A stretch of 64,000 nucleotides of DNA, from the IMG/VR virus record IMGVR_UViG_3300028610_002211, positions 1 through 64,000 of that record; one strand, 5' to 3'. This document shows positions 8,709 to 62,370 of the stretch, piece after piece. The translations under genes and the position numbers were made by a program. Under the pieces are notes generated by a model that saw nothing but the letters and a program-made list of their open reading frames with translations, ran no database searches and had not been told where the DNA came from. The stretch's first letter is position 1. Every line of letters begins with the position of its first letter. This stretch comes from a virus.

Positions 8709-8791
8709 CCGGCTTTTACACCTTTTGGTGTGGTTTGGTATACATCGAGCACAACGGCTGTCAGAACGGCGCACAAGGACTCTGAGAAGAT

Positions 8792-10174
8792 ATGGATCAA
8801 CCTGTTTTTGACATTGAATTTGAAAAAGAGATATTAGCGCAAGCGCTGAAAGAACCGGAATATACAAAATTAGCTTCTAGGGTTCTAAATGCACATCATT
8901 TTGGGACTTCGGAATTAGCTTGGTGTTGGGAAATAATTTTTGATGTTTGGACAAAAAACAAAGAACTACCATCAAAAAAACTTTTTGTTCAAAAGGCAAA
9001 ATACGCATTTGATGAAAAAGACGAACAATTAAAAAATCTTCGAGTTATCCGAAAATTATTTAAGTTAAAACCAAAAAATCCGCGTTCTACTCTCGAAGAA
9101 TTGACCGATTTTGTAAGATTGGTTGATGCGCAAAGAGCAATGGAACTTGCGGTTGACAAGCTTGGAAAACATCAAATAGACGGTGCTTATAGTGAATTTC
9201 ACAAATTGACAAAGCGCGATTATAGCCCGGTTCAATTTACGCGTGTCAAATGGATTGAAGAATTCGAAGAAAGGCAAATAGAGAGAAAATATCAGCGTGA
9301 TAATCCCGATTTGGTTGTTAAGGTTCCGACAAACATAAAAAAACTAGATCGAATTATTACCGGGTTGCAAATTGGTGAATTAGGCTTGGTGATGGGTACA
9401 ACCTCACAAGGTAAAAGCGCAATGTTAACGAATTTCGCTTATGCAGCTTTGATCGCTCGGGTTAGAAAATACAAAGTTGCTTATTTCGCTTTAGAAATGC
9501 CAGCGCGCCAAATAGCAATGAGACAAGATGCGCGTTGGTTGAGAATGGATTACAACAAATTCAAAAATTATGATTTCACAAAAAAAGAAAGAAGGCGGAT
9601 AGACAAAAAACTAAGGTCGGCAAGAAAAAGGCATAAAGAGTGTTTCGAGATCTTTAGTTTTCCACTTGGTAAGCCAACCATCAACTCTGTAAAAGACGCG
9701 TTAGAAAAATCGTTTGACGATTGTGGTTTTCGTCCTGATTTGGTTTTACTTGATTCGCCCGATCATATGCAACCGACAACAAAACAAGAGTCGACAAGAC
9801 TCAACCACACAGTTGTTTATCAAGAGTGTAAGGCGTTTGCCGAAGAAGACGGCTACGCGGTTTGGGCAAGCGTTCACGCCGGGCGCGATTGGGAAAAAAA
9901 GGTTGCAACAACACAAGCCGCCGGTGAAAGTTACGACAAATCAAGGATTGCCGATTTAGTGGTGACACTAAACACACCAGAAAAGAAAACTAGATCGACC
10001 CGGGTTATTATCGATGATGATGAAGATGAAGATTTTATTGACGACCCAACGACGCTTGCAAAATACCGTTATATTGAATTGTATCTTGCAAAATATCGCG
10101 ACGGCGAAGCGCGGATTTCAATTCCGCTTGATGGTAATTTTGCGAAAATGATCTTTGATGAGTTGGACGTATGA
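8792..10174 (+). CDS. dnaB: DnaB-like replicative helicase
   Basis: GTTSQGKS, FALEM, LLDSPD and LAKYRDG motifs. Confidence 0.88.
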   Translation: MDQPVFDIEFEKEILAQALKEPEYTKLASRVLNAHHFGTSELAWCWEIIFDVWTKNKELPSKKLFVQKAKYAFDEKDEQLKNLRVIRKLFKLKPKNPRSTLEELTDFVRLVDAQRAMELAVDKLGKHQIDGAYSEFHKLTKRDYSPVQFTRVKWIEEFEERQIERKYQRDNPDLVVKVPTNIKKLDRIITGLQIGELGLVMGTTSQGKSAMLTNFAYAALIARVRKYKVAYFALEMPARQIAMRQDARWLRMDYNKFKNYDFTKKERRRIDKKLRSARKRHKECFEIFSFPLGKPTINSVKDALEKSFDDCGFRPDLVLLDSPDHMQPTTKQESTRLNHTVVYQECKAFAEEDGYAVWASVHAGRDWEKKVATTQAAGESYDKSRIADLVVTLNTPEKKTRSTRVIIDDDEDEDFIDDPTTLAKYRYIELYLAKYRDGEARISIPLDGNFAKMIFDELDV

Positions 10175-16100: not shown

Positions 16101-16925
16101 TTTTCATTCGGTGAACATCCGATCATTGCTTATAGGCGATTTTTGAAAGAGCATATAAAGGTCAAAGTTTCTCCTTTGGGTGGTGATTTTTACGATAAAT
16201 TTAACAACAAACACCCATTTATTTTGGGAATAATTGTTGATTCGAAATTTGCTCGAATTGGTGATTATCACACCGGCGATTTGCCAAATAAACAAGATAG
16301 AAAAAGACAATTTTGGGGCCACAGATACGCCAATGCAAACATTGAAGGGCGCGATGGTGATCAACGCCGGGTTAAATTCGATATAGATATTTTTGAACAA
16401 GCAAGATCTGTTTTAGACTCAGGTTCTGGCACCCCGGTTTTGGTTCATTGTAGCAACGTTAACGCCGCTTATTCATCTGTAAAAGCAAATTTCATTTTAG
16501 ACTTGGAAAGTTTGAGGAAAAGGATTAAAACAGGCGAAGAACTTTCGATGATAGAAAGGCTTGTCACTGGCGATCATCCTGCATTATCTTACCCATGGAA
16601 AAGTGAAAAAATAAAAAACGAAATGACAACTCATGAAAAATTCAAAAAGTCTCGCGGTGGCGGTATTTTTTGTGGGGTGATTACACACATTAGAATCAAA
16701 TACGACAAAAATGACAATCAAATGGCTTTCATTGGCGTTTTTGGCGTTAAAAAACACATAGAGGTTGTTTGTTTTTCTTCTAATTGGTTGCAAGATCGTA
16801 AAAAGATAATCGAAGGATCTAATCGTTTAATCAAAATTGCTGTTGAAAAACAAAGACAAAGAGGGCGCGGTTTGTCGTTTTTTTATAACGGCGGCGGTGT
16901 AAAGGTTTTGGATGGGACCAAATAA
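13110..16925 (+). CDS. dnaE: DNA polymerase III alpha subunit (family C)
   Basis: PHP domain HLHTHS/TDHG/DAHY; GPGRGSAAGSLV; PDIDMD; GIHAAG; KLDVLGL; YGFNRSHS. Confidence 0.97.
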   Translation: MTKTKKDDFVHLHTHSDMSQLDGCATIDAYTRAAKKRGNPAIAITDHGTLRGYHALHEATEKHGVNPIYGIEFYVAKKMRRKGLTDEEKQVISDGMKKAEAKIAVKEFEEQEGIRDRWHLTVWAKNDEGLKNLFYLSSKAYTDGFYYKPRIDIDALIKHGDGLMVGSGCLASVVNDRVIAGKKKEAIKVSDQLFDRFGSDYWLEIQPHPIDEQEIANKYCMNLSKRYGGKVGLLATQDAHYVGRKDAIHHDVMLCIGTHKYLSDQKRFRFDGDGFFLKRRGQMRRSFEDCHPLLTKRQIKEALDNTMAFAERVTAKVEIDYLKGILPEVELGEGFDNDWSYFKSLCFQGWIWRAMDKKIKFVAKMRDEKKSRIAKEYKTRLAYEMNTIKKQKFIPYFLVVYDIYRWVRENKIMCGPGRGSAAGSLVSYLLGITSVDPIEHGLLFERFMNPDRIDLPDIDMDFEDSRRQEIIDYLRDKYGHDRVAQIATIGTLKGKACVRDVSRVLGVPIAAVNEVASSIIERSSAHPRTHKTIVDSFKEFEVCQRFDRKYPSVVQHASKLEGMAKSLGIHAAGVVVAPKPIWRYTPVESRKHKGRDIIVTALDMNGVAAIGLVKLDVLGLKTLTVLRECLEAIEERHGETIDLERVDLYDQTVLDRFTARDFSGVFQFDTPSADKMCEGIVFDRFADLPALNALNRPGATRSGLAKEWIAKKKNPKKRKKSKFHKSVVEITSDTLGVITYQEHVNQIFIDVAGFEPARADKLRKKIGKSKGKEAIDEIRDEFIKGAVKKHGKDGMTVEAAEKIINAIAHFGAYGFNRSHSVSYAIIAYWAMFLKTYYALEFYWSLLKNEEDITKVQKIAKDAKRRGIKILPPDISVSRKDFAIDPNEENTIWGSLADIKGVGEKAISTIVENQPFKSFWDFVERTNRRQCHKGVTKALVKSGAMDLYIPNIKWLLDNFDSFWGNLTKHHVKKALKKSRKKPDYDREERNLLASTVNPFSFGEHPIIAYRRFLKEHIKVKVSPLGGDFYDKFNNKHPFILGIIVDSKFARIGDYHTGDLPNKQDRKRQFWGHRYANANIEGRDGDQRRVKFDIDIFEQARSVLDSGSGTPVLVHCSNVNAAYSSVKANFILDLESLRKRIKTGEELSMIERLVTGDHPALSYPWKSEKIKNEMTTHEKFKKSRGGGIFCGVITHIRIKYDKNDNQMAFIGVFGVKKHIEVVCFSSNWLQDRKKIIEGSNRLIKIAVEKQRQRGRGLSFFYNGGGVKVLDGTK

Positions 16926-43244: not shown

Positions 43245-44103
43245 CACTCTTTAACACATGTATAACGATCGAGTTATACTCAGAAAGGAATTGTAAAATG
43301 GGTGAACGTTCAACGATAGTTTTAAACGATAAATGGTGTTGGGTCAATATAGAAATGAAGGATATAAAAAAGGGCGATATATTCCGATCACTAGAAGCGA
43401 ACAAAACACCAGTTTGGGGCGACGGTGCCTTTAAGAGCATTAGAACGTTTATCGCTCTTAAAGACGCAGAAATAAAAAAGGGTGTTGCCGGTGTCGTATC
43501 GGACGGGGTTCCGTGTGTGAATGAATACACACGAACATACATCGATATGGAAAACAACGAACACGCGTATAACGGCCGAACTATCCTTTAACACGTTTTA
43601 ACGCAAAAAGGAGAAAAAACGATGAAAAAAGTCAATATTTTGTTAACTTTTGAAGTTGATGACGATTGTGATACAACTGCATTAACAGATTGTATACGTT
43701 GCATGACTGATGACTTCGATTACGAATTTATCAAAGAAGATACCGGTTCGAGTGCGACTTTATCCGGAATAAAAGAAGTTCAAAGTCTTCTTTAACGTGT
43801 TTTAACAACCACAGAAACAAAAAAAGGAGAAAAACGATGAACGAAAGTAAAATGAAGCTTTTTTTAGTATCGGACAAACCGAAAGAACAGTTCAATAGTT
43901 CAAGAGACGATCACATAATCATTTTGGCAAAAACAGAAGAAAACGCACTAAAGCTCGCAAAAGAAGAAAATCCGGCTTTGTGTTTGAGAGGTAGTATTGC
44001 TGTATTGGAAGATGAGAAACACGAAAGGATATTAGTATCCGTTAAATACAACAAGCATTATAATCCGCTGATTGGCGCGACAGCACTCCTTAAACACGCT
44101 TAA
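43241..44103 (+). CDS. Three hypothetical genes (43241-43591, 43622-43795, 43837-44103)
   Basis: The last two have AAGGAG SDs; 43622-43795 (57 aa) is below the ORF-track cutoff. Confidence 0.6.
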
Positions 44104-45014
44104 CACGCGGTCGGTTATTCGAACACACACGAACACGCAGCAAAACACCCCCAGAACACCAACACATCCCCTAAAACGCTCGATTACACGCTAAGGTATA
44201 CCCTAGCCTACCTAACGCTCCAACACGCTTACAGACACTTACAGACATGTTTAACGATATAACGACTTGTCTTTAATTTATGAGGGTGATTATTCTAGTC
44301 TTTTGAGTACAGGCATGTTGAAATTCCCCCTATATAGACAGCGCCTTAAAGGAATACTTTAACACGCTAATTCATATATCAGAAAATCTTTAAAACACTC
44401 AAAAAACCCAAAAACCTCCAAATAGACTGAAAAAAAGGATCTGTTTCTCGTTCGAGTACTTAATTCAGATGTCGCCACAATCCCCCAAAAATCCCCCAAA
44501 CAAAAAACCACACCAAGAGCACCATAGGGGTCACAAGAGCCATAACGATAACAACAGAGATAGTAACAGCCACATATACCTCTAATCGTCCCCAGAACAC
44601 CCCTAGAATTCGGTATATGCCGATATACACGCATACACGTAGGCACGTGTAGAAGCGTAACAGAAAGCAGATGAGAGGACATACACGTGATATAGCGTTT
44701 AACGTAATTTAGATGTTTAAGAGGGAATGAGTTAGAGCGTGTTAGAGGGGATTAGTTAAACGGATTAAGGGAGTTAGAGTTGAAGAATAGATATAGCGAC
44801 CGATATAACGACCGATATAACGACCCGTGATAGTTTCGAAAGGCGGCGCGCTCCCGACCTGGGAAAACTCAAAATCAGCAGCACACCTAAACAAGAAACG
44901 TACCAATCCGAGGGGAGTTAAAGCCACGACCCCAGAAACCTTTAAACGGTTTAAACGCGTTTGTCCTCATACGCACATACACACATATAATACAAATCAT
45001 TTGTCGCTTTTATC

Positions 45015-45043
45015 TTGACATATGAGTTAGAGGTGGTTATATT
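45015..45043 (+). promoter_or_regulatory. Promoter, probably leaderless, for 45050..45292
   Basis: TTGACA-17-TATATT; ATG at +7. Confidence 0.7.
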
Positions 45044-45049
45044 AGTAGT

Positions 45050-45292
45050 ATGGCAAGAACAACAGCAATCGAATCGAAAGGAGTAACGGGAATGAAAAGG
45101 GCCGTCTGCTGTAAGTGTCGGGTCATGCGCAACACTGACGAGATGGATCGGACTGTGGGGTGTTTGGGTCAAATCGTTTGGTTGTGTCAACGGTGCAGCA
45201 ATGCACAGCACAAAGAGCAAATTCGCGAAATCTTAATTGATGCTGAATCACAAGGTGTCGATATAGATAAGTGGAGACACCTGCTCGACTAA
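45050..45292 (+). CDS. Small zinc-finger protein
   Basis: CCKC...CQRC; own promoter and a downstream GC hairpin (45302-45324). Confidence 0.6.
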   Translation: MARTTAIESKGVTGMKRAVCCKCRVMRNTDEMDRTVGCLGQIVWLCQRCSNAQHKEQIREILIDAESQGVDIDKWRHLLD

Positions 45293-45919
45293 TCCCCAAC
45301 GGGGCGCGGGTTAAACCGCGCCCTACTTCTTTAGTTCGAGTTAAAGCCGTCTTAAACCCGTTCTAACGCTCTAACTCTTTAACTCAACCCGTGGGTATTA
45401 ACTAGGGTTAGAAAGGAGCACAGAAGGGCGTATAACGGCATCACAATCGATCCTACCCCCACTGGCAATCCGATGTGGGCCGGGGGGCGGTCTGGACCCA
45501 TGTCTTACTGCCGCGCCCAACGCTCAACTTTTTCACCAAAAGCCGTTTTTAACCCATATAATCGAGTTAGAGACCTAACTATTTCACAAAAAATTTTTAA
45601 CTCGCAAAGCCAAACTTTCCCAACATCTGAGTTAGACACTACCTAACGACTTAACGACTTAACGACCTAGCGACCCAACCGCCACCCCCCTTTTAACCAA
45701 TGCCCACCTACAAAACCACAGAATAACCCACAAGCCGCTTTAACACCCTAAGACAACCAACCCTATACCCAGATGTTAGAAAGGCACACACAAAGCCCTA
45801 ATGCGACTCCAGGCCTTCGGCCTACCTACGCGCTCGGGCGCGCGCGTGGGAAACGAAGAAAGGGAAACAAAAAAGCTTCCGGAGGTGCCGGGAGGGGGCG
45901 AAGAAAAGTGAGAAAAATG

Positions 45920-51012: not shown

Positions 51013-51086
51013 TTGACATCTGAATTAAGAGGTGTTAAGCTTATAATATGAACAGCGCAACACAAAACACGGGAGCAAGCAAAATG
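51013..51086 (+). promoter_or_regulatory. Promoter-leader cassette, copy 2
   Basis: TTGACA-17-TAAGCT TATAAT ATG...GGGAG..ATG. Confidence 0.85.
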
Positions 51087-54935: not shown

Positions 54936-55248
54936 AAGGAGTTTTTAATGATTCCAACATACACAGAAATCGATCTTGAACCTTGGCTTGGCGCTTCGGG
55001 CGTTGAACGCTTCTCAACGTTAGACACACTACAAGGCTATTTCGAGCCCGAAAACCTCAAAGCAATCCTTGGGCCCGGATGTTGACCTTGAAAGGGCACA
55101 GCTGGCTTGTGAGCAAGCTACAACGCAATGGAAACAGCAACACGAAGACGATCCGTGCAGTTCTTGCCCGGTTGGGCGTTGGATGTCATAAAAGAACCGA
55201 TCAAAACCAGGTTGTAAAAATTATTTTAAAATAAATGTCGTTTTTTTC

Positions 55249-55319
55249 TTGACATCTGAATTAAGGGGTGTTAAGTTTATAGTATGAACAGCGCAACACA
55301 CAAAGGAGCCAAGACAATG
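55249..55319 (+). promoter_or_regulatory. Promoter-leader cassette, copy 5
   Basis: TTGACA-17-TAAGTT TATAGT ATG..AAAGGAG..ATG. Confidence 0.85.
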
Positions 55320-55736
55320 AAAAGCGAAGAAATGATAGCCAAAATTGAAAGTGAAAAGAGGGAAGTTAATCGGCGCCTTAAGGATTACGATCTGGCGCAA
55401 ACTACACCAAATAATTTGACAATCAGGGTGATAAGCCGTTTAAAAGGCAAGTTGTCTGGATTAGAGTTTGCCTTAAAACTGTTGAAAAAATAAATGAAAG
55501 AGGCAAGCAAAATGAAAATCCAAATCGCTAGTTTATACGCAAACGAGAAAAACAAAAAAAAGGCCGATCGGATCAAAAAGGCACTACAAGGAAAAACGTC
55601 TTTTAATTTGCAAGTGTCGGCGGTCAACAAGGGTGGAAACCTCATTATCACAGTTTCGAGTAGCTTTGCCGAAAACATGGTTGAATTGGCTGAGATGGTT
55701 ATGACTCTTCTTGTTGACTTGATCGACGGTGAATAA
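55284..55736 (+). CDS. Two small early genes (55284/55317-55493, an LNGLRFAL paralog; 55494-55736)
   Basis: Cassette-led ORFs. Confidence 0.65.
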
Positions 55737-57015
55737 AATGAAAAACGTAACACAAGAAAGAAAAATTTTTTGGTACAATCGTTTCGATTTTTTGGCGGTA
55801 GCAATTCTTTTTTGGGCCACTATCAAAAAGAGCGCTTTCAACAATGCGCGCTTGGTTTTCAACGGCGAAACCCGCGTTGTTAGGGGTCGGACCGAATATT
55901 CACCCAACATCACAGAATACGGTTTTGAAGTTGTTTGCGACATCAACGATCATATCGAAATCCCTGGACACCGCTTTGTTGGAATCGCCGTAAACAAAGG
56001 ACCGGGTTGGATCGTTACCAACTTCACTGACGATTTCAAATTCACCAAAGAGGTTGTTGACTCTTTGGATCCACAACGTTGTGATATGTGCGGACACAAA
56101 AGAGACCGGGTTCGTTTGATGATTCTCGAAAACACCGATACCAAAGAGCTTGTGATCGTGGGTGGCAGCTGCGCAAAGAATTTTCGCAACGTCAATCTTG
56201 AAGACTTGGTCCGCAAAATGACAATTTTCTCAAGCAACTTTGGCTGTATGGACCCTGATGAATTGGGCGGTTTTGGCGGCGGCGGTCGTAGAATTTTGGA
56301 TTTGGTTGAGTCGATCGCGGTTGGCGAATTGTTGATCTCTCGACTCGGGTACACCTCAAGAAAAAAAGCAGATATAGGAATGACTTATGCTACTTCAGAT
56401 TTGATCGCCGATTATTTCGCGAGCAAGGGTAAGTCTTACAAATCCATCAAAGCCGTTATGGACCGCTCAAGGTTAGACCTTGCTCAGCGCATTAAAGAGC
56501 TTACAAACGGCGGTCTGAAGGCGCTTAGGGCTCATTTCGAGCGCGCTAACGAGCGCCGTTGGTCTGAATTCAACAGCAACATGGTTGTTTGGTTGTCTTG
56601 TAAAGAAGACGTTCCGCTTGGTGTCGCTGCTTACCTCGCTTTTGTCAACCTCGAAGGCGCCAAAGAATCGGACCGGACCGATCAGAAAGTTGCCGGCTTC
56701 GACGGTGCACCGATCAAAAAAATGTCAGATTTCGGTTGGTTCAAAGTGGTAAACGTTAGAGCAAAGGAGAATGATTACACTGGTAACACTGATTTTTGTT
56801 TCACTTGTTTGAACGCCGATTCACAAAAACTTTGGTTCAAGGTTGGCGAGAATAGCGTTGCAAATAAAGCTTATGATCAAGTTGTCTCGGGTGATGGGGT
56901 TAACCAAGATCAAGAGATCTGGATCGATGTTCGTGGCAAATTGACCCGAAGCAAAAGTGAAATTGCTTTTGCTTCGCACATCAAATTCAAAAAAGTTGAA
57001 ATCCGCACAATCTAA
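55729..57015 (+). CDS. Hypothetical protein with zinc ribbon and possible C-terminal OB-like domain
   Basis: CDMCGHKR.R...VGGSC; 428 aa. Confidence 0.75.
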   Translation: MNKMKNVTQERKIFWYNRFDFLAVAILFWATIKKSAFNNARLVFNGETRVVRGRTEYSPNITEYGFEVVCDINDHIEIPGHRFVGIAVNKGPGWIVTNFTDDFKFTKEVVDSLDPQRCDMCGHKRDRVRLMILENTDTKELVIVGGSCAKNFRNVNLEDLVRKMTIFSSNFGCMDPDELGGFGGGGRRILDLVESIAVGELLISRLGYTSRKKADIGMTYATSDLIADYFASKGKSYKSIKAVMDRSRLDLAQRIKELTNGGLKALRAHFERANERRWSEFNSNMVVWLSCKEDVPLGVAAYLAFVNLEGAKESDRTDQKVAGFDGAPIKKMSDFGWFKVVNVRAKENDYTGNTDFCFTCLNADSQKLWFKVGENSVANKAYDQVVSGDGVNQDQEIWIDVRGKLTRSKSEIAFASHIKFKKVEIRTI

Positions 57016-57211
57016 ACAATTTCGAAAAGCAAACAAAGGGTGCGGGAAACCGCGCTCTTTGTCTTTGCAGAATGTCCAGGGCGCCCTTGTGCGCGCGCCC
57101 GCGCGCGGGCGCATACTCGGGCAAGGGTTAAACACAACGGCCGTTAGAACGGCGCACAAAGGTTCTGAGAAGGAAGTGAGATAAACAGATCCTAAAGGAT
57201 AATATCTAAAT

Positions 57212-57227
57212 TGCAATCTGCGTGCCA
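57212..57227 (-). promoter_or_regulatory. sigma54 -24/-12 site
   Basis: TGGCACG-CAGA-TTGCA. Confidence 0.7.
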
Positions 57228-57268
57228 AAGGAAAAATAATTTTTTTTAAAATAAAAGTGAGAATTTTC

Positions 57269-57332
57269 TTGACATCTGAATTAGCTGTGTTAAGTTTATA
57301 ATATGAGCGCAACAATAAGGAGCAAGACAATG
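57269..57332 (+). promoter_or_regulatory. Promoter-leader cassette, copy 6
   Basis: TTGACA-16-TAAGTT TATAAT ATG..AAGGAG..ATG. Confidence 0.85.
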
Positions 57333-57476
57333 AACGTTAAAATGAAAAAAGGAGAAACAGGTTATTTCAAGGGTGACAAAATACAATTCACCGGAAAAGA
57401 AGAAGTTCTTTACGGTGGGCTTTTCGATGAGTTTGTTTATCTCGAAGGTTATAAAAAAGCAGCTAAAAAAGCATAA
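57303..57476 (+). CDS. Small early protein (57 aa, second start 57330; not in the ORF track)
   Basis: MSATIRSKTMNVKMKKGETGYFKGDKIQFTGKEEVLYGGLFDEFVYLEGYKKAAKKA. Confidence 0.65.
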   Translation: MSATIRSKTMNVKMKKGETGYFKGDKIQFTGKEEVLYGGLFDEFVYLEGYKKAAKKA

Positions 57477-57817
57477 TGCACAAAGGAGCAAGTAAAATGA
57501 ACACCACTAACAATAATAAAAATACTGTCGAAGAAAAAAGAACAACAATCGAGGTTTTCGACCCTAAAAAATTCGATCACAACCAAAGGTGGTTTCAACC
57601 GATCAACAATTTTGCTTTTCTTGGACAAGCTTCCGGTATGGCGCTCGCTCACGATCCGATTTATAGGGATAGTCTATGGGCCGAAACAGTACCGCACCCT
57701 AATTTTTTGCGCGATGTCGAGAGAAAATTTCCCGGTCATGTGTTGGTTTATGATGATATGGGTCATGGACGCGATTGGATTCTCTCGATCAAAGGTTCTA
57801 TTCCTTCGAACGAATAG
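57476..57817 (+). CDS. Hypothetical protein
   Basis: TAATG-coupled; carries the partial leader CACAAAGGAGCAAGTAAAATG. Confidence 0.7.
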   Translation: MHKGASKMNTTNNNKNTVEEKRTTIEVFDPKKFDHNQRWFQPINNFAFLGQASGMALAHDPIYRDSLWAETVPHPNFLRDVERKFPGHVLVYDDMGHGRDWILSIKGSIPSNE

Positions 57818-57818
57818 C

Positions 57819-57924
57819 GTTCAACGCCCTTGTGCGCGCCCCTGTGGTAACTTTTGTTTGTCTCCTGTGTTGCGCTAACCATGGGGATTTGAGTCGAACA
57901 GGAGCGCGCACAAGGGTGTTGAAC
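57819..57924. ncRNA. Candidate structured RNA: 27-bp stem enclosing an inverted copy of the cassette leader/SD
   Basis: Inverted repeat 57819-57845 / 57898-57924 (25/27); the loop at 57851-57882 is the reverse complement of ATGGTTAGCGCAACACAGGAGACAAACAAAAG. Confidence 0.5.
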
Positions 57925-57985
57925 CCGTTCAACAGCTTCAATGAACCTGCCAAAATAAACAGATCCTAAAGGATAATATCTAAAT

Positions 57986-58001
57986 TGCAATTCACGTGCC
58001 A
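57986..58001 (-). promoter_or_regulatory. sigma54 -24/-12 site
   Basis: TGGCACG-TGAA-TTGCA. Confidence 0.7.
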
Positions 58002-58043
58002 AGAAAAAAACCACTTCTGTTTAATTTAAATGTCGTTTTTCGG

Positions 58044-58114
58044 TTGACATCTAAATTAGAATGATTAAGCTTTATAGTATGAGCGCAACACAAAACACGG
58101 GAGAAAACAAAATG
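58044..58114 (+). promoter_or_regulatory. Promoter-leader cassette, copy 7
   Basis: TTGACA-16-TAAGCT TTATAGT ATG..GGGAG..ATG. Confidence 0.85.
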
Positions 58115-58698
58115 ACAAAAATCGAAATGGCTCAGTATATTGTTGAGGTCTTGTATCAGTTGGACCACGTACCTGCCCGAGATCACATCCATGTCCAGCG
58201 AATAGCTCGCAGGCCGAAGGTTGCCTTGGAGAATTTGTACGAAAGAGCTTTCGTGGTCGAAGAAGAGCTGAAGGCGAAAAAAACCATAGCTAGCCTGTAA
58301 ACCAAAACTGCAAACGGGGGGGGTAACACTCCCCGAAAGGGTGTCCGATGAACGACAAAATAAAAAAAATACTGTTCGAATTGTCGGCCGATTTCACTTT
58401 GGCTGGTATCCAACAAGGGCGCAAATCGTTACACGAGGATAAAGCGCTTTGCCTCAAGGTTTCGAAATTACGAAACGCGATCGATCTTTTGTCACTCCAA
58501 AGAGCGCAACTTGCGCGTTGTTGGGAAGGTGTTTCGATTACTTCTATCGTTGAAACGGTCAAAGAATGTTTGGGCGCAGCGCTTGAATTGGGATCTTTTT
58601 TGGGTAATAACTACCCCGCCGAGTATATCGAAATCGAGTTGCATGGTACAAAATACGTCGAAAAATGTTGGGCCTTGATTGGCGTTTTGTCCGTTTAA
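58079..58698 (+). CDS. Two hypothetical early genes (58079/58112-58300; 58348-58698)
   Basis: Cassette-led; followed by a terminator. Confidence 0.65.
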
Positions 58699-58720
58699 AA
58701 TCGTATTTCATCCCGGTTTA

Positions 58721-58750
58721 AAGGTGTTTCGAAAGGGGCGCCTTTTTTTA
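58721..58750 (+). terminator. Intrinsic terminator
   Basis: AAGGTGTTTC-GAAA-GGGGCGCCTT followed by a T-tract. Confidence 0.8.
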
Positions 58751-58782
58751 TTTCTGTGTAATTCACAAGTCAGGATAATCTT

Positions 58783-58798
58783 TGGCACGTAAATTGCT
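58783..58798 (+). promoter_or_regulatory. sigma54 -24/-12 site
   Basis: TGGCACG-TAAA-TTGCT. Confidence 0.7.
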
Positions 58799-58923
58799 AC
58801 GCGTGTTGTAAATATTATCCTTTAGAATCTGTCCATCCGTTTCGGCGTCCGAATTAACCGCTTATTTTTGTTGGCGTTAGGCTTTGTGTTTGAAAACGAG
58901 TTCAAGGGCCTTGTGCGCCTTCT

Positions 58924-58990
58924 CAAGGCGTTTTAACGGGTCAACCTATACCAGGGGTTGAGTTAAAAAAACGGTCGTTAAAACGCCTTG
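58924..58990. repeat. Perfect 15-bp inverted repeat within a phased element
   Basis: CAAGGCGTTTTAACG ... CGTTAAAACGCCTTG with an inner TCAACC/GGTTGA stem. Confidence 0.85.
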
Positions 58991-59029
58991 TGGATATCTT
59001 GTGTTTAATTCACATGTTGATAAATAGTT

Positions 59030-59045
59030 TGGAATGAATATTGCA
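59030..59045 (+). promoter_or_regulatory. sigma54-like -24/-12 site
   Basis: TGGAATG-AATA-TTGCA (GG-N10-GC). Confidence 0.55.
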
Positions 59046-59142
59046 ACGCGCGCTTGTTTACATTTAGAATCTGTACATCCGCTTCAACCTTCGATATAAA
59101 TTGCGTTTTGACTTTTTAGTTAAAGAGTGTTAAAACCTGTTC

Positions 59143-59643
59143 ATGAAAATTCTAAGACGAAAAAACATAAAAAGCTTTCCGGGTTATCAAATTTCAAACT
59201 TTGGAACAGTTAGGAGAGAAGTTTATAAATTGTACGGGATTAAGGAAACGAGGATATTTCCTCATATCAATAATGGTTATCAAATTGCCAATTTAAAAAG
59301 CGAATCTGGGGAGCAAAAGAAAGTGCCTATTCACAAACTTGTTGCAAAAGCTTTCGTTTCCGGCTGGTTTGAGGGCGCAATTGTTGATCATATCGACGAG
59401 AATAAGCAGAATAATTTTTTCAAAAATCTTCGCTGGGTAACTCATCGCTTTAATTCCTCTCGACGTAAGCGCGATCTGCCTTTGAATGTTTCAAAATTTC
59501 GAAATCGAAATAGTTATATTGTTCGAGTTTATTTCGGTGGTGAAATCGTTTATTTGGGCTCATATAAGACGGTTGAAGAAGCTTCGAGGGTTGCTGAAAG
59601 GGCGCGCAAGCAAGCGGAAAAAGGGGAAAAACCAACTCGTTAA
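59143..59643 (+). CDS. NUMOD4-HNH homing endonuclease with AP2-like C-terminal domain
   Basis: IKSFPGYQISNFG.V, IHKLVAKAF, VDHIDENKQNN...NLRWV, YLGSYKTVEEA. Confidence 0.9.
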   Translation: MKILRRKNIKSFPGYQISNFGTVRREVYKLYGIKETRIFPHINNGYQIANLKSESGEQKKVPIHKLVAKAFVSGWFEGAIVDHIDENKQNNFFKNLRWVTHRFNSSRRKRDLPLNVSKFRNRNSYIVRVYFGGEIVYLGSYKTVEEASRVAERARKQAEKGEKPTR

Positions 59644-59710
59644 TTTTTTTAGTTTCGGCGAAGCTAAATCAGAGGGTTAAAATTCTTCTAATTTAAATGT
59701 CGTTTTTCGG

Positions 59711-59739
59711 TTGACTTCTGAATTAAACAGGTATACAAT
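59711..59739 (+). promoter_or_regulatory. Promoter carrying the GAATTA box
   Basis: TTGACT-17-TACAAT. Confidence 0.75.
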
Positions 59740-59775
59740 CAAACAAGAGGTGTTCGACTAAATGGAGGTGTTTAA

Positions 59776-60168
59776 ATGGCAAGGGTTAAAATAATCGACT
59801 TTGACGCGTTGCGCAGCGCGATCGAAGATTTCAAAGCGGGGTTGCTCGAATTTGCCGAAAATGGGGGTGATTTAAACAAGCTTGTTAAAAATTCAGAAAT
59901 GGTATTGAACCGTTTGACCGGCGAAGAAATGGAAATCTGTATTGTTGTCCAGCACGAAAAAACCCCACAACCAGAATTTGCGATTGTGAAAGGCGCTGTT
60001 TATCGTCAATCAAAGCGGGGCAAAACACACCTATTTCTTTTGACTGGGCACCGTGGCAAGGCGTTTTGTGGAGTCTCGATTGTTGATACAAGCCTTGTTT
60101 TATCTCCAAACGTAGCGGATATTTGCTCCGATTGTGCTTTAGCTGTTAACGATTTAGATGATATTTAA
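59776..60168 (+). CDS. Hypothetical protein with C-terminal zinc finger
   Basis: H...FCG...CSDC; GGAGG SD. Confidence 0.7.
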   Translation: MARVKIIDFDALRSAIEDFKAGLLEFAENGGDLNKLVKNSEMVLNRLTGEEMEICIVVQHEKTPQPEFAIVKGAVYRQSKRGKTHLFLLTGHRGKAFCGVSIVDTSLVLSPNVADICSDCALAVNDLDDI

Positions 60169-60206
60169 CAGTTTTTATTTTCATATATCTGTATTTTCTT
60201 AACATA

Positions 60207-60229
60207 TGTTTCACATTTCACGTGAAACA
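60207..60229. other. parS-like ParB binding site
   Basis: CATTTCACGTGAAACA (14/16 to TGTTTCACGTGAAACA) with an overlapping extra half-site TGTTTCAC; intergenic. Confidence 0.55.
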
Positions 60230-60280
60230 TTTCTTGATTTATAAATTGGATTGTGTAAAGCTCACAAAATGGAGGTATCA

Positions 60281-60739
60281 ATGAACGAAAACAGAAAAAC
60301 AAAAGAAAAGTCAGAAGATAGCGGGGCGCCCGAACAGGTCGAAAATGAGCTCAAAAAAGAAGAACCATCGTTTACACCAAACGAAATTTTGGAACCGCTT
60401 GGGTTTGTTGAACAACAATTGACCGATGATCAGAGTAATTTGCTCGCTTTTTTTCAATTAACACTGTACGAAAAACCGCGAAAAATCGATCTTGACGCGT
60501 CTGTAACAGCTGGATTTGACGAAAATGGGACTTATCTTTTAGTTTTTGATTTTGAGATTACGGTATTTATTGACGTTTGTGATGTTCATATCGGGTCTTA
60601 TGACATTATTTTAGACTACGAAAACAGAAATAAGTTTGCCATAATCTTTAAAGCCATTGTAACCTTTTTGTCACAATCGGCAAAACTCTATGTTGCAACA
60701 CAGGCTTTACTTGACGAGAAAAAAGAAAAACCAAACTAA
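60281..60739 (+). CDS. Hypothetical protein
   Basis: GGAGG SD before ATG 60281. Confidence 0.65.
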   Translation: MNENRKTKEKSEDSGAPEQVENELKKEEPSFTPNEILEPLGFVEQQLTDDQSNLLAFFQLTLYEKPRKIDLDASVTAGFDENGTYLLVFDFEITVFIDVCDVHIGSYDIILDYENRNKFAIIFKAIVTFLSQSAKLYVATQALLDEKKEKPN

Positions 60740-60755
60740 GCAAGGAAGACGGCCG

Positions 60756-61484
60756 ATGAGTGAGAAGCTTTTGAAACGGGTTGCGGCACTGTTCGCCTTA
60801 TCCGATAACAACCCGAGCCCAGAAGAGGCACAAAGCGCCCTAGAGCAAGCCAGGGCGCTGTTGCAAAAGCACAACCTTACAATGATTGATGTTGAGTCTG
60901 TCGAGGATCACAAAGGGGCTCAGGGCGGTTACAGCGAAACAGCGACGGTTGGAGAAAAGATCGCCCAATGGAAAAAATCTGTTGCCGCTGTTGTTGCCGA
61001 ATATTTAGATATAAAAGTTGTTACTAGAAAATATGTGCGTAAAAGAGATGTTAGTTTTTTGTTTTATGGTTTGGTGTTAAACACCGAAATCGCGATCGGT
61101 ATTTTTTTATCTTTATTGAGACAAATTGAAACAATGACAAAAAATTACCATGGTAAAGGTCATTACGCAAAAAGCGTATATCGCCAGGGCATTTTATACG
61201 GTTTGGATCAACGTTTGGAAATTTTGAAAATTAGACAAAATTCAAAATGTACTGCGTTGGCTATTTGCTCTAACAAAGTTGCAGATAATTGGATGGAAAA
61301 CGAGGGTATAAAAGTTGAACGAGCGAGGGTAAAAACCAAAAAAGAAAAAACGAAAGAGCAACAACGTAAAGATCGAAATCTTTTTGGTTGGGATCGTCAA
61401 CTCCATTTTTCAAGGGGTTTGAGCGATTCTTATTCATTGGTTTTAGAGAAAGTGTTAGACGGTAAAACAAAAGAAGAAAGTTGA
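60756..61484 (+). CDS. DUF2786 domain protein
   Basis: KLLKRVAALFALS.NNPSPEEA..AL..A..LL.KHNL. Confidence 0.8.
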   Translation: MSEKLLKRVAALFALSDNNPSPEEAQSALEQARALLQKHNLTMIDVESVEDHKGAQGGYSETATVGEKIAQWKKSVAAVVAEYLDIKVVTRKYVRKRDVSFLFYGLVLNTEIAIGIFLSLLRQIETMTKNYHGKGHYAKSVYRQGILYGLDQRLEILKIRQNSKCTALAICSNKVADNWMENEGIKVERARVKTKKEKTKEQQRKDRNLFGWDRQLHFSRGLSDSYSLVLEKVLDGKTKEES

Positions 61485-62021: not shown

Positions 62022-62370
62022 AATTGGCGGGTACATTTCAGACACACCAAAGATACAGTAGGAAATATACCGCAGGTGTCGCCAATTTTCAAGTAAAAAA
62101 TATAACTTTTTTGACTTTTGTTTTAGGGTCGGATAACATCAAATCATGACCAGAGTCCAAGGTCAATCGCTAGTTGTCTTTACGCGCTCTCATACGGGCG
62201 CTCAAGAGACGTTTTTCACAAATGTACACTTGACTTCAACCTTTTATATGTGGCGTGCTATCCCCTTGCCAGACACCTGAGAAGCGTATGAAACAAAACC
62301 CGTTATAAAAACAGTGACGTGTTTCGAGCACTGTTCAAAAAAATATTTTTTTCGAAAACTGACAGTGAGG

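Follow-up and report, generated by a model that had tools for sequence, protein, structure and literature searches.

Candidate sigma-54-type promoter modules built on the early-promoter chassis of a phage genome

The phage genome of IMG/VR virus record IMGVR_UViG_3300028610_002211 carries a cluster of four related modules, named here s1 to s4, whose cores have the form of the -24/-12 promoter element read by RpoN (sigma-54) and whose surroundings resemble the sigma-70 early promoters of the same phage. The stretch examined, referred to below as the window, comprises the first 64 kb of the 104,305-bp record, and the counts of -24/-12 sites cover the whole genome. In the favoured reading, to which a probability of about 0.45 is given, the modules are host RpoN-type promoters that would produce short leader-tagged transcripts; with the same probability, they may constitute a second promoter class, made of copies of the early-promoter chassis of the phage in which a sigma-54 core has replaced the sigma-70 core. 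The host-RpoN reading draws its main support from three features, namely selection on the core bases, a conserved block on the transcribed side, and a link between module and downstream hairpin that keeps its orientation.

The four cores and their leader blocks

The modules consist of the following cores and conserved blocks:

57212-57227, minus strand: s1 core, perfect -24/-12 element TGGCACG-CAGA-TTGCA, predicted start near 57201
57986-58001, minus strand: s2 core, perfect -24/-12 element with N4 = TGAA, predicted start near 57975
58783-58798, plus strand: s3 core, perfect -24/-12 element with N4 = TAAA, ending in TTGCT, predicted start near 58809
59030-59045, plus strand: s4 core, weaker paralogue TGGAATG-AATA-TTGCA (10/12, two mismatches, GG and GC kept), predicted start near 59056
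57185-57205, minus strand: s1 leader block ATATTATCC+TTTAGGATCTGT, conserved, beginning at about +1 to +5
57959-57979, minus strand: s2 leader block, conserved, same sequence as the s1 block
58812-58832, plus strand: s3 leader block TTTAGAATCTGT, conserved, shifted by 7 nt through an ACGCGTG insertion after TTGCT
59063-59074, plus strand: s4 leader box TTTAGAATCTGT, continuing into an HNH gene

An earlier note on the window had located these four sites, and its coordinates and sequences hold throughout. The note also recognized the RpoN -24/-12 consensus in them, in agreement with the GG-N10-GC spacing expected of an RpoN promoter, which is kept at exactly 10 bp in all four copies, while the extended consensus TGGCACG-N4-TTGCW is matched at 12/12 positions in s1-s3. 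Its statement that no comparable match exists elsewhere extends to the whole genome, since perfect matches are confined to s1-s3, three in all 104,305 bp and all within 1.6 kb, as against a chance expectation of about 0.01 (own arithmetic) for what are paralogous copies. Scored against the sigma-54 consensus, the genome contains 109 sites at 9/12, 18 at 10/12 and one at 11/12, followed by three at 12/12, so that the perfect sites exceed the tail of the distribution. When an intact GG and GC, a score of at least 10/12 and an intergenic position are required together, only the four modules and one further site remain, the latter at 62256-62271 on the minus strand (TGGCAAG-GGGA-TAGCA, 10/12, GG and GC intact). 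Moreover, a profile made from the four modules recovers these four and no fifth copy when run over the genome, and each of the four lies in an intergenic gap between a terminator and a promoter. A degenerate -24/-12-like sequence, TGGCAGG-TTCA-TTGAA, is also present at 57937-57952 on the minus strand, 34 nt downstream of s2 and on the same strand.

The copies differ from each other in an instructive manner. The N4 spacer is different in every one of them (CAGA, TGAA, TAAA and AATA). In the comparison of s1 with s2, 37 nt are identical up to TTGCAAT (57181-57217 and 57955-57991, an identity already reported in the earlier note), three of the four N4 bases differ, CGTGCCAA is shared again, and the sequences then diverge. 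A variable N4 next to a kept GG-N10-GC points to constraint on the bases that sigma-54 reads and not on the repeat as a whole, and this pattern among the copies supports the view that selection acts on the RpoN-critical bases. The stretch between -12 and +1 is AT-rich in s1 and s2.

Besides the core, all four copies have just one feature in common, a block that begins at about +5 to +13. This block, TTTAGRATCTGT, which had likewise been noticed after every site, lies 15, 15, 22 and 17 nt after TTGCW in s1, s2, s3 and s4, respectively, and is preceded by ATATTATCC in s1-s3. Exact copies of TTTAGRATCTGT occur at the four sites only, and with one mismatch allowed there are 7 matches against 0.73 expected, a number that 0 of 100 shuffled sequences reach. 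Three conserved islands can thus be distinguished: the -24/-12 core, the TTTAGRATCTGT block and, in s3 and s4, an upstream AT-rich element. The region also contains a tandem repeated unit of about 775 bp, together with some repeat pairs of looser spacing. A search for seed targets of the leader among the phage mRNAs returned only the s1 and s2 loci themselves and one 12-mer inside a gene.

A chassis shared with the sigma-70 early cassettes

Between 45 and 64 kb, small genes are placed behind about 13 near-identical sigma-70 cassettes. Each is composed of an AT-rich UP element, a TTGACW -35 hexamer, a conserved spacer with TCTGAATTA, and an extended -10 element TGnTAAGNT located 16-17 nt after the -35, and ends in a conserved leader followed by a strong Shine-Dalgarno sequence. 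The elements relevant to the comparison with the modules are:

57269-57314, plus strand: sigma-70 early cassette with TTGACA, TCTGAATTA spacer, TGnTAAGTT -10 and conserved leader, back to back with s1
58044-58090, plus strand: sigma-70 early cassette, back to back with s2
58751-58770, plus strand: 20-mer resembling an UP element, 11 nt ahead of the s3 TTGG and with 75% identity to the cassette UP element at 58014-58033
58998-59017, plus strand: 20-mer resembling an UP element, 11 nt ahead of the s4 TTGG and with 85% identity to the same UP element

When cassettes and modules are aligned by anchoring on TTG, the modules fall in the register of the cassette -35 plus spacer. The UP-like 20-mers of s3 and s4 have the orientation of the cassette UP element, and s1 and s2 carry the same T-run before TTGG, each in its own orientation. 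The cassette core TTGACATC-TGAA/TAAA-TTAR and the module core TTGGCACG-N4-TTGC are separated by five fixed differences, all of which shift the sequence toward the sigma-54 consensus and lie at positions that sigma-54 specifies. In agreement with this, cassettes score 5-7/12 against the sigma-54 consensus and modules 10-12/12, with nothing on this chassis at 8 or 9. Furthermore, the module block at about +5 to +13 has a counterpart in the sigma-70 cassettes, namely their conserved leader, which starts at +1. Judged by their shared register and the five directed differences, these are two promoter-like classes on one chassis, each with a conserved block at or just after the predicted +1. This chassis homology is new relative to the earlier note.

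It also changes how the vicinity of the modules is to be understood. The earlier note had described a GAATTA box lying 12, 12, 44 or 45 bp from the sites. These distances are correct. At s1 and s2, however, the box is the spacer of the neighbouring sigma-70 cassette, and at s3 and s4 its sequence can be aligned equally well or better to the UP element of the cassette, read in direct orientation (75% and 85% identity). The proposed phasing of the box over three helical turns is therefore largely a by-product of cassette architecture. A divergent sigma-70/sigma-54 switch, also put forward previously, is left unsupported, because the predicted starts of s1 and s2 and those of their sigma-70 neighbours are back to back at a distance of about 100 bp, at which the two polymerases would not overlap.

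The cassettes at 51013, 51671, 52103, 55249, 57269, 58044, 59711 and others display in addition an inverted half-site pair around the -35, formed by a TAATTTAAATGT-like element, 13 nt, and then ACATCTRAATTA. This pair has the look of a dimeric regulator's operator superimposed on the promoter.

Predicted transcripts and the question of activation

Three of the sites lead into non-coding structured DNA, as the earlier note had stated, and the fourth faces a gene. The features downstream of the modules are:

57030-57068, no strand assigned: hairpin that follows gene 55729-57015, has a T-run on either strand and would terminate the s1 transcript at about 170 nt
57819-57924, no strand assigned: hairpin downstream of s2, with a 27-bp stem and z = -6.95 when folded as the s2 transcript
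58895-58990, plus strand: structured non-coding segment downstream of s3, with an arm homologous to the s2 hairpin arm, followed by a 15-bp perfect stem
59143-59643, plus strand: HNH homing-endonuclease gene, for which s4 is the nearest promoter-like element

According to the favoured reading, the host sigma-54 holoenzyme (E-sigma54) would dock at the modules as a closed complex, and an active host enhancer-binding ATPase, or an unrecognised phage activator, would trigger initiation about 12 nt after the GC. Each RNA would then begin with a shared leader containing UUUAGRAUCUGU. The s1 RNA, about 170 nt long and antisense to the operon upstream at its 3' end, would run to the two-way hairpin, and the s2 transcript would form the very stable hairpin with the 27-bp stem and then continue antisense into gene 57497-57817. 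In turn, s3 would yield a structured non-coding RNA of about 190 nt, and s4 would act as promoter of the HNH endonuclease gene. For a nuclease gene and for antisense RNAs alike, the tight off state of sigma-54 promoters would be suitable.

The combination of a module and a hairpin arm downstream of it persists in either orientation, in s2 on the minus strand and in s3 on the plus strand. The loop of the 57819-57924 hairpin, read on the s2 strand, is a leader-like copy. Small open reading frames on the s1/s2 strand, such as 57798-57953 (51 aa), were considered and rejected as by-products of the palindrome. The stretch downstream of s1 is in part a plus-strand element that is also found upstream of the DnaB-like helicase gene and, hence, is not specific to the modules: 57120-57180 and 8745-8792, the latter just upstream of that gene, are homologous on the plus strand, and both contain a CGCACAARGG arm and CTGAGAAG.

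Regarding s4, its core is situated 97 nt before the ATG of the HNH gene, for which no Shine-Dalgarno sequence and no sigma-70 promoter passing the scan were found. A weak TTGACT-17-TAAAAC at 59109-59143 would put the start at the HNH ATG and give a leaderless message. Just upstream of s4, two DnaA-box-like 9-mers with one mismatch each are located on the minus strand at 58989-58997 and 59015-59023, 26 bp apart; there are 24 9-mers of that kind in the whole genome.

The transcription apparatus encoded by the phage bears directly on this scheme. Neither a sigma-54 DNA-binding domain nor a sigma-70 region 2 nor a T7-type RNA polymerase is encoded by it, so that transcription must use the host holoenzyme. 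The search for a bacterial enhancer-binding protein (bEBP) suggested in the earlier note found none among the phage genes, either as a Sigma54_activat domain (PF00158 search) or as a GAFTGA motif (motif scan); activation of sigma-54 must therefore come from a host bEBP or from an unrecognised phage protein. The homologue of HU/IHF that had been reported at 16912 is indeed visible as a match, but it remains below the Pfam threshold (21.7 bits against a cut-off of 22.4). A single NifA-type match, at 58342-58357, is not near any site.

Several further observations weigh, together with the missing phage activator, against the proposal of host RpoN promoters. Firstly, the four copies are paralogous and not independent events, so that the statistics partly reflect duplication. 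Secondly, s1-s3 have no gene downstream, s1 and s2 point against a uniformly plus-strand gene order, intrinsic terminators were not found after s2 or s3, leaving s1 as the only module unit with a terminator-like end, consensus sites for NtrC, LuxO and IHF were not found within 56800-59400, and the covariance models of Rfam 15 gave no match at E <= 1 in 55000-61000. Thirdly, neither conservation nor host supplies support. Among 16 IMG/VR relatives (polymerase about 37-58% identical) there is neither a perfect site nor a cluster, and the three of them that were compared in full (GC 50-61%) have no homologue of any gene in 43.0-65.4 kb. As to the presence of rpoN in the host, DnaE compared with GTDB genomes matched cellular DnaE only, at 32-37% identity, and TerL compared with cultured phages reached about 25% identity and gave no assignment.

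Alternative explanations, comparable systems and genome context

A first alternative, considered unlikely, is that the host sigma-54 holoenzyme binds the modules without being meant to fire, the sites acting as parked insulators or roadblocks, or as decoys that titrate scarce sigma-54; in the decoy form, four strong sites per replicating genome would blunt RpoN-dependent host responses. Such inactive occupancy has a precedent, since sigma-54 holoenzyme binds many non-promoter DNA sites in a transcriptionally inactive state (PMC4591121, PMC3844500). It would fit the placement of all four sites in terminator-to-promoter gaps, the presence of both orientations and the failure to find an activator or enhancer. 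Nevertheless, parking or titration would have no need for a conserved TTTAGRATCTGT on the transcribed side or for a hairpin link that keeps its orientation.

Somewhat less probable still is the explanation that the modules are promoters of the sigma-70 family, or sites of another factor, and that their sigma-54 likeness is coincidental. The coincidence is eased by a parent cassette that already matches 5-7 of 12 positions; TTGGCA agrees with five of the six bases of the -35 hexamer, the UP-like element of the cassette is shared, and s1 and s2 can be read as TTGGCA-18-TATTAT (10/12) and s4 as TTGCAA-18-TAGAAT (9/12). However, s3 has no such reading at >=9/12 due to its 7-nt insertion, the copies need different hexamer pairs and show no consistent 16-18 bp arrangement, and neither the kept CG after TTGGCA nor the TTGC at fixed distance is explained, while all five fixed differences land on the sigma-54 consensus.

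To a similarly low degree, the modules may be recombination footprints of shuffled cassettes, perhaps including a captured sigma-54 promoter, and serve no function today. Repeated pieces form a mosaic in this region, which includes the ~775-bp tandem unit, the piece downstream of s1 recurs upstream of the DnaB-like helicase gene, an inverted leader copy occupies a hairpin loop, and an HNH endonuclease gene adjoins. Moreover, cassettes of the PeSL type known from T4 mediate such shuffling (PMC2839356, PMC4122927). Against mere relics stand the motif-specific conservation in a diverged background and the variable N4, which indicate purifying selection on the core, as well as the non-coding share of the locus, about 0.9 kb out of 2 kb, which is unusual for a dense phage genome.

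Replication-origin iterons, or sites of a recombinase, an invertase or the HNH nuclease, are very improbable despite the outward-facing order s1(-) s2(-) s3(+) s4(+) and the DnaA-box-like pair close to s4, as there is no inflection of GC skew at the locus (which breaks only at 44-46 kb), the copies extend over 1.9 kb that also contain genes, no recombinase is nearby, and four self-sites of the nuclease would be self-destructive.

The proposal of host RpoN promoters can be set beside several known systems. The modules agree with bacterial sigma-54 promoters of the glnAp2 and pspA type in the consensus, which is exact in three copies, in the GG-N10-GC spacing of all four, and in the AT-rich sequence from -12 to +1 of s1 and s2. 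They differ from them in belonging to a virulent-looking phage, in lacking a recognisable activator, enhancer or IHF site, and in that three of the four precede no gene and two run opposite to the gene order. A further comparison is with sigma-54-dependent small RNA genes, such as glmY and glmZ, with overlapping sigma-70 and sigma-54 promoters, Vibrio Qrr1-5, and Pseudomonas CrcZ. As in these, there are several non-coding units that are paralogous and have a sigma-54 core each, and s1 and s2 allow an overlapping sigma-70 reading; unlike them, its units show no sequence or Rfam similarity to these genes and only s1 has a terminator-like end.

The intragenic and antisense E-sigma54 sites of E. 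coli and Salmonella are likewise strong sites that do not head operons, for which transcriptional interference, antisense RNA and inactive parking have been proposed as roles (PMC4591121, PMC3844500). Those sites are mostly intragenic, single-copy and chromosomal, whereas the phage sites are intergenic and paralogous and have a shared leader. T4-type PeSL cassettes are also similar in layout, being repeated, recombination-prone units of early promoter plus hairpin that flank small variable open reading frames (PMC2839356, PMC4122927). The phage has a comparable arrangement, as far as sequence layout goes, in its ~13 sigma-70 cassettes sharing UP element, core and leader, its post-gene hairpins and its ~775-bp tandem unit. 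PeSLs carry sigma-70 early promoters only, in contrast to the subset of the chassis with a sigma-54 core found here.

The record is listed as linear, with a CheckV completeness of 100% and a GC content of 41%, and all credible genes are on the plus strand. It encodes a DnaE-type polymerase, a DnaB-like helicase, RecA, SbcCD, ThyX, thymidylate kinase, ArdC, terminase and portal proteins; a tRNA search found none, and a lysin was not found among ten late proteins. The GC skew is positive throughout, except in a C-rich non-coding stretch at 44-46 kb that probably corresponds to the physical genome ends or to a packaging or replication region. Within it, 44100-45800 is C-rich and without genes and is the sole place of negative GC skew; it contains short direct repeats (CGACCGATATAA units near 44796-44826 and TAACGACT units near 45647-45680), and the promoter box is present there three times on the minus strand (44379, 44472 and 44716).

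No cultured relative was found (polymerase <=36% identical, TerL about 25%), and a nucleotide search of 56000-60000 against cultured phages gave no match. The style of the sigma-70 cassettes does not fit a Bacteroidota host. The three fully compared relatives share the replication and structural modules; lacking a homologous early region, they offer no locus at which conservation could be judged. The nearest trace of a close relative is P0001, a protein on a 1,256-bp JGI contig that is 86% identical to the product of 55729-57015; this product, the 428-aa protein flanking the modules, has no relative in IMG/VR. The module patterns gave no match in IMG/VR, and the cassette pattern gave 39 single, chance-like matches, none of them in the records of the relatives. 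One metagenome match to the module (L103) lies at the 3' end of an apparent frameshifted histidine-kinase gene on a bacterial contig and was judged unrelated on account of this gene context and of an estimate that about one such match is expected by chance.

A scan of IMG/VR for TTGGCACG-N4-TTGCAA returned mostly single matches, together with several contigs containing multiple ones. G017 (L301; 110 kb, GC 28%) has eight perfect cores, seven of them on one strand, and the three cores inspected there are followed by a conserved leader and, 30-41 nt later, by the start of an open reading frame. G018 (L303) has seven perfect cores on one strand, and G019 (L243) has tandem non-coding copies about 89 bp apart; the inspected copies in these two share an upstream AGTTATGTAAA box. 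These three contigs are unrelated to the phage; they have seven or eight perfect cores, most of them on one strand, and no bEBP or sigma-54 is encoded in G017, G018 or G019. These arrays thus resemble the present one in combining several perfect -24/-12 cores and a following conserved leader with a virus that lacks sigma-54 and bEBP genes. The arrays have no sequence relationship to the modules, and the G017 cores differ in preceding start codons and in forming one major promoter class; by comparison with the other viral arrays, the phage described here has four sites, mostly without genes and derived from a sigma-70 cassette. Such multi-core viral contigs raise the prior that phages exploit sigma-54 cores. 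Literature searches directed at phages turned up no work on sigma-54 promoters in the genomes of virulent-type phages.

A bolder and rather doubtful extension of the host-RpoN reading is that the phage retooled copies of its sigma-70 chassis into sigma-54 promoters that would stay silent without a signal-sensing ATPase of the host and, in this way, would act as a sensor of host state. If this were true, the phage would read the state of its host and answer with leader-tagged non-coding and antisense RNAs and with a homing endonuclease. If the sites work, part of the early programme of the phage would be coupled to a host enhancer-binding protein, that is, to a readout of stress or nutrients, and a few substitutions on a conserved chassis would have sufficed to turn a promoter into one of another class. 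Accounts of phage transcription programmes deal almost exclusively with sigma-70 takeover, phage sigma factors or phage polymerases. Taken with the sigma-54 arrays of other viral contigs, the modules would point to a neglected transcriptional interplay between phages and their hosts.

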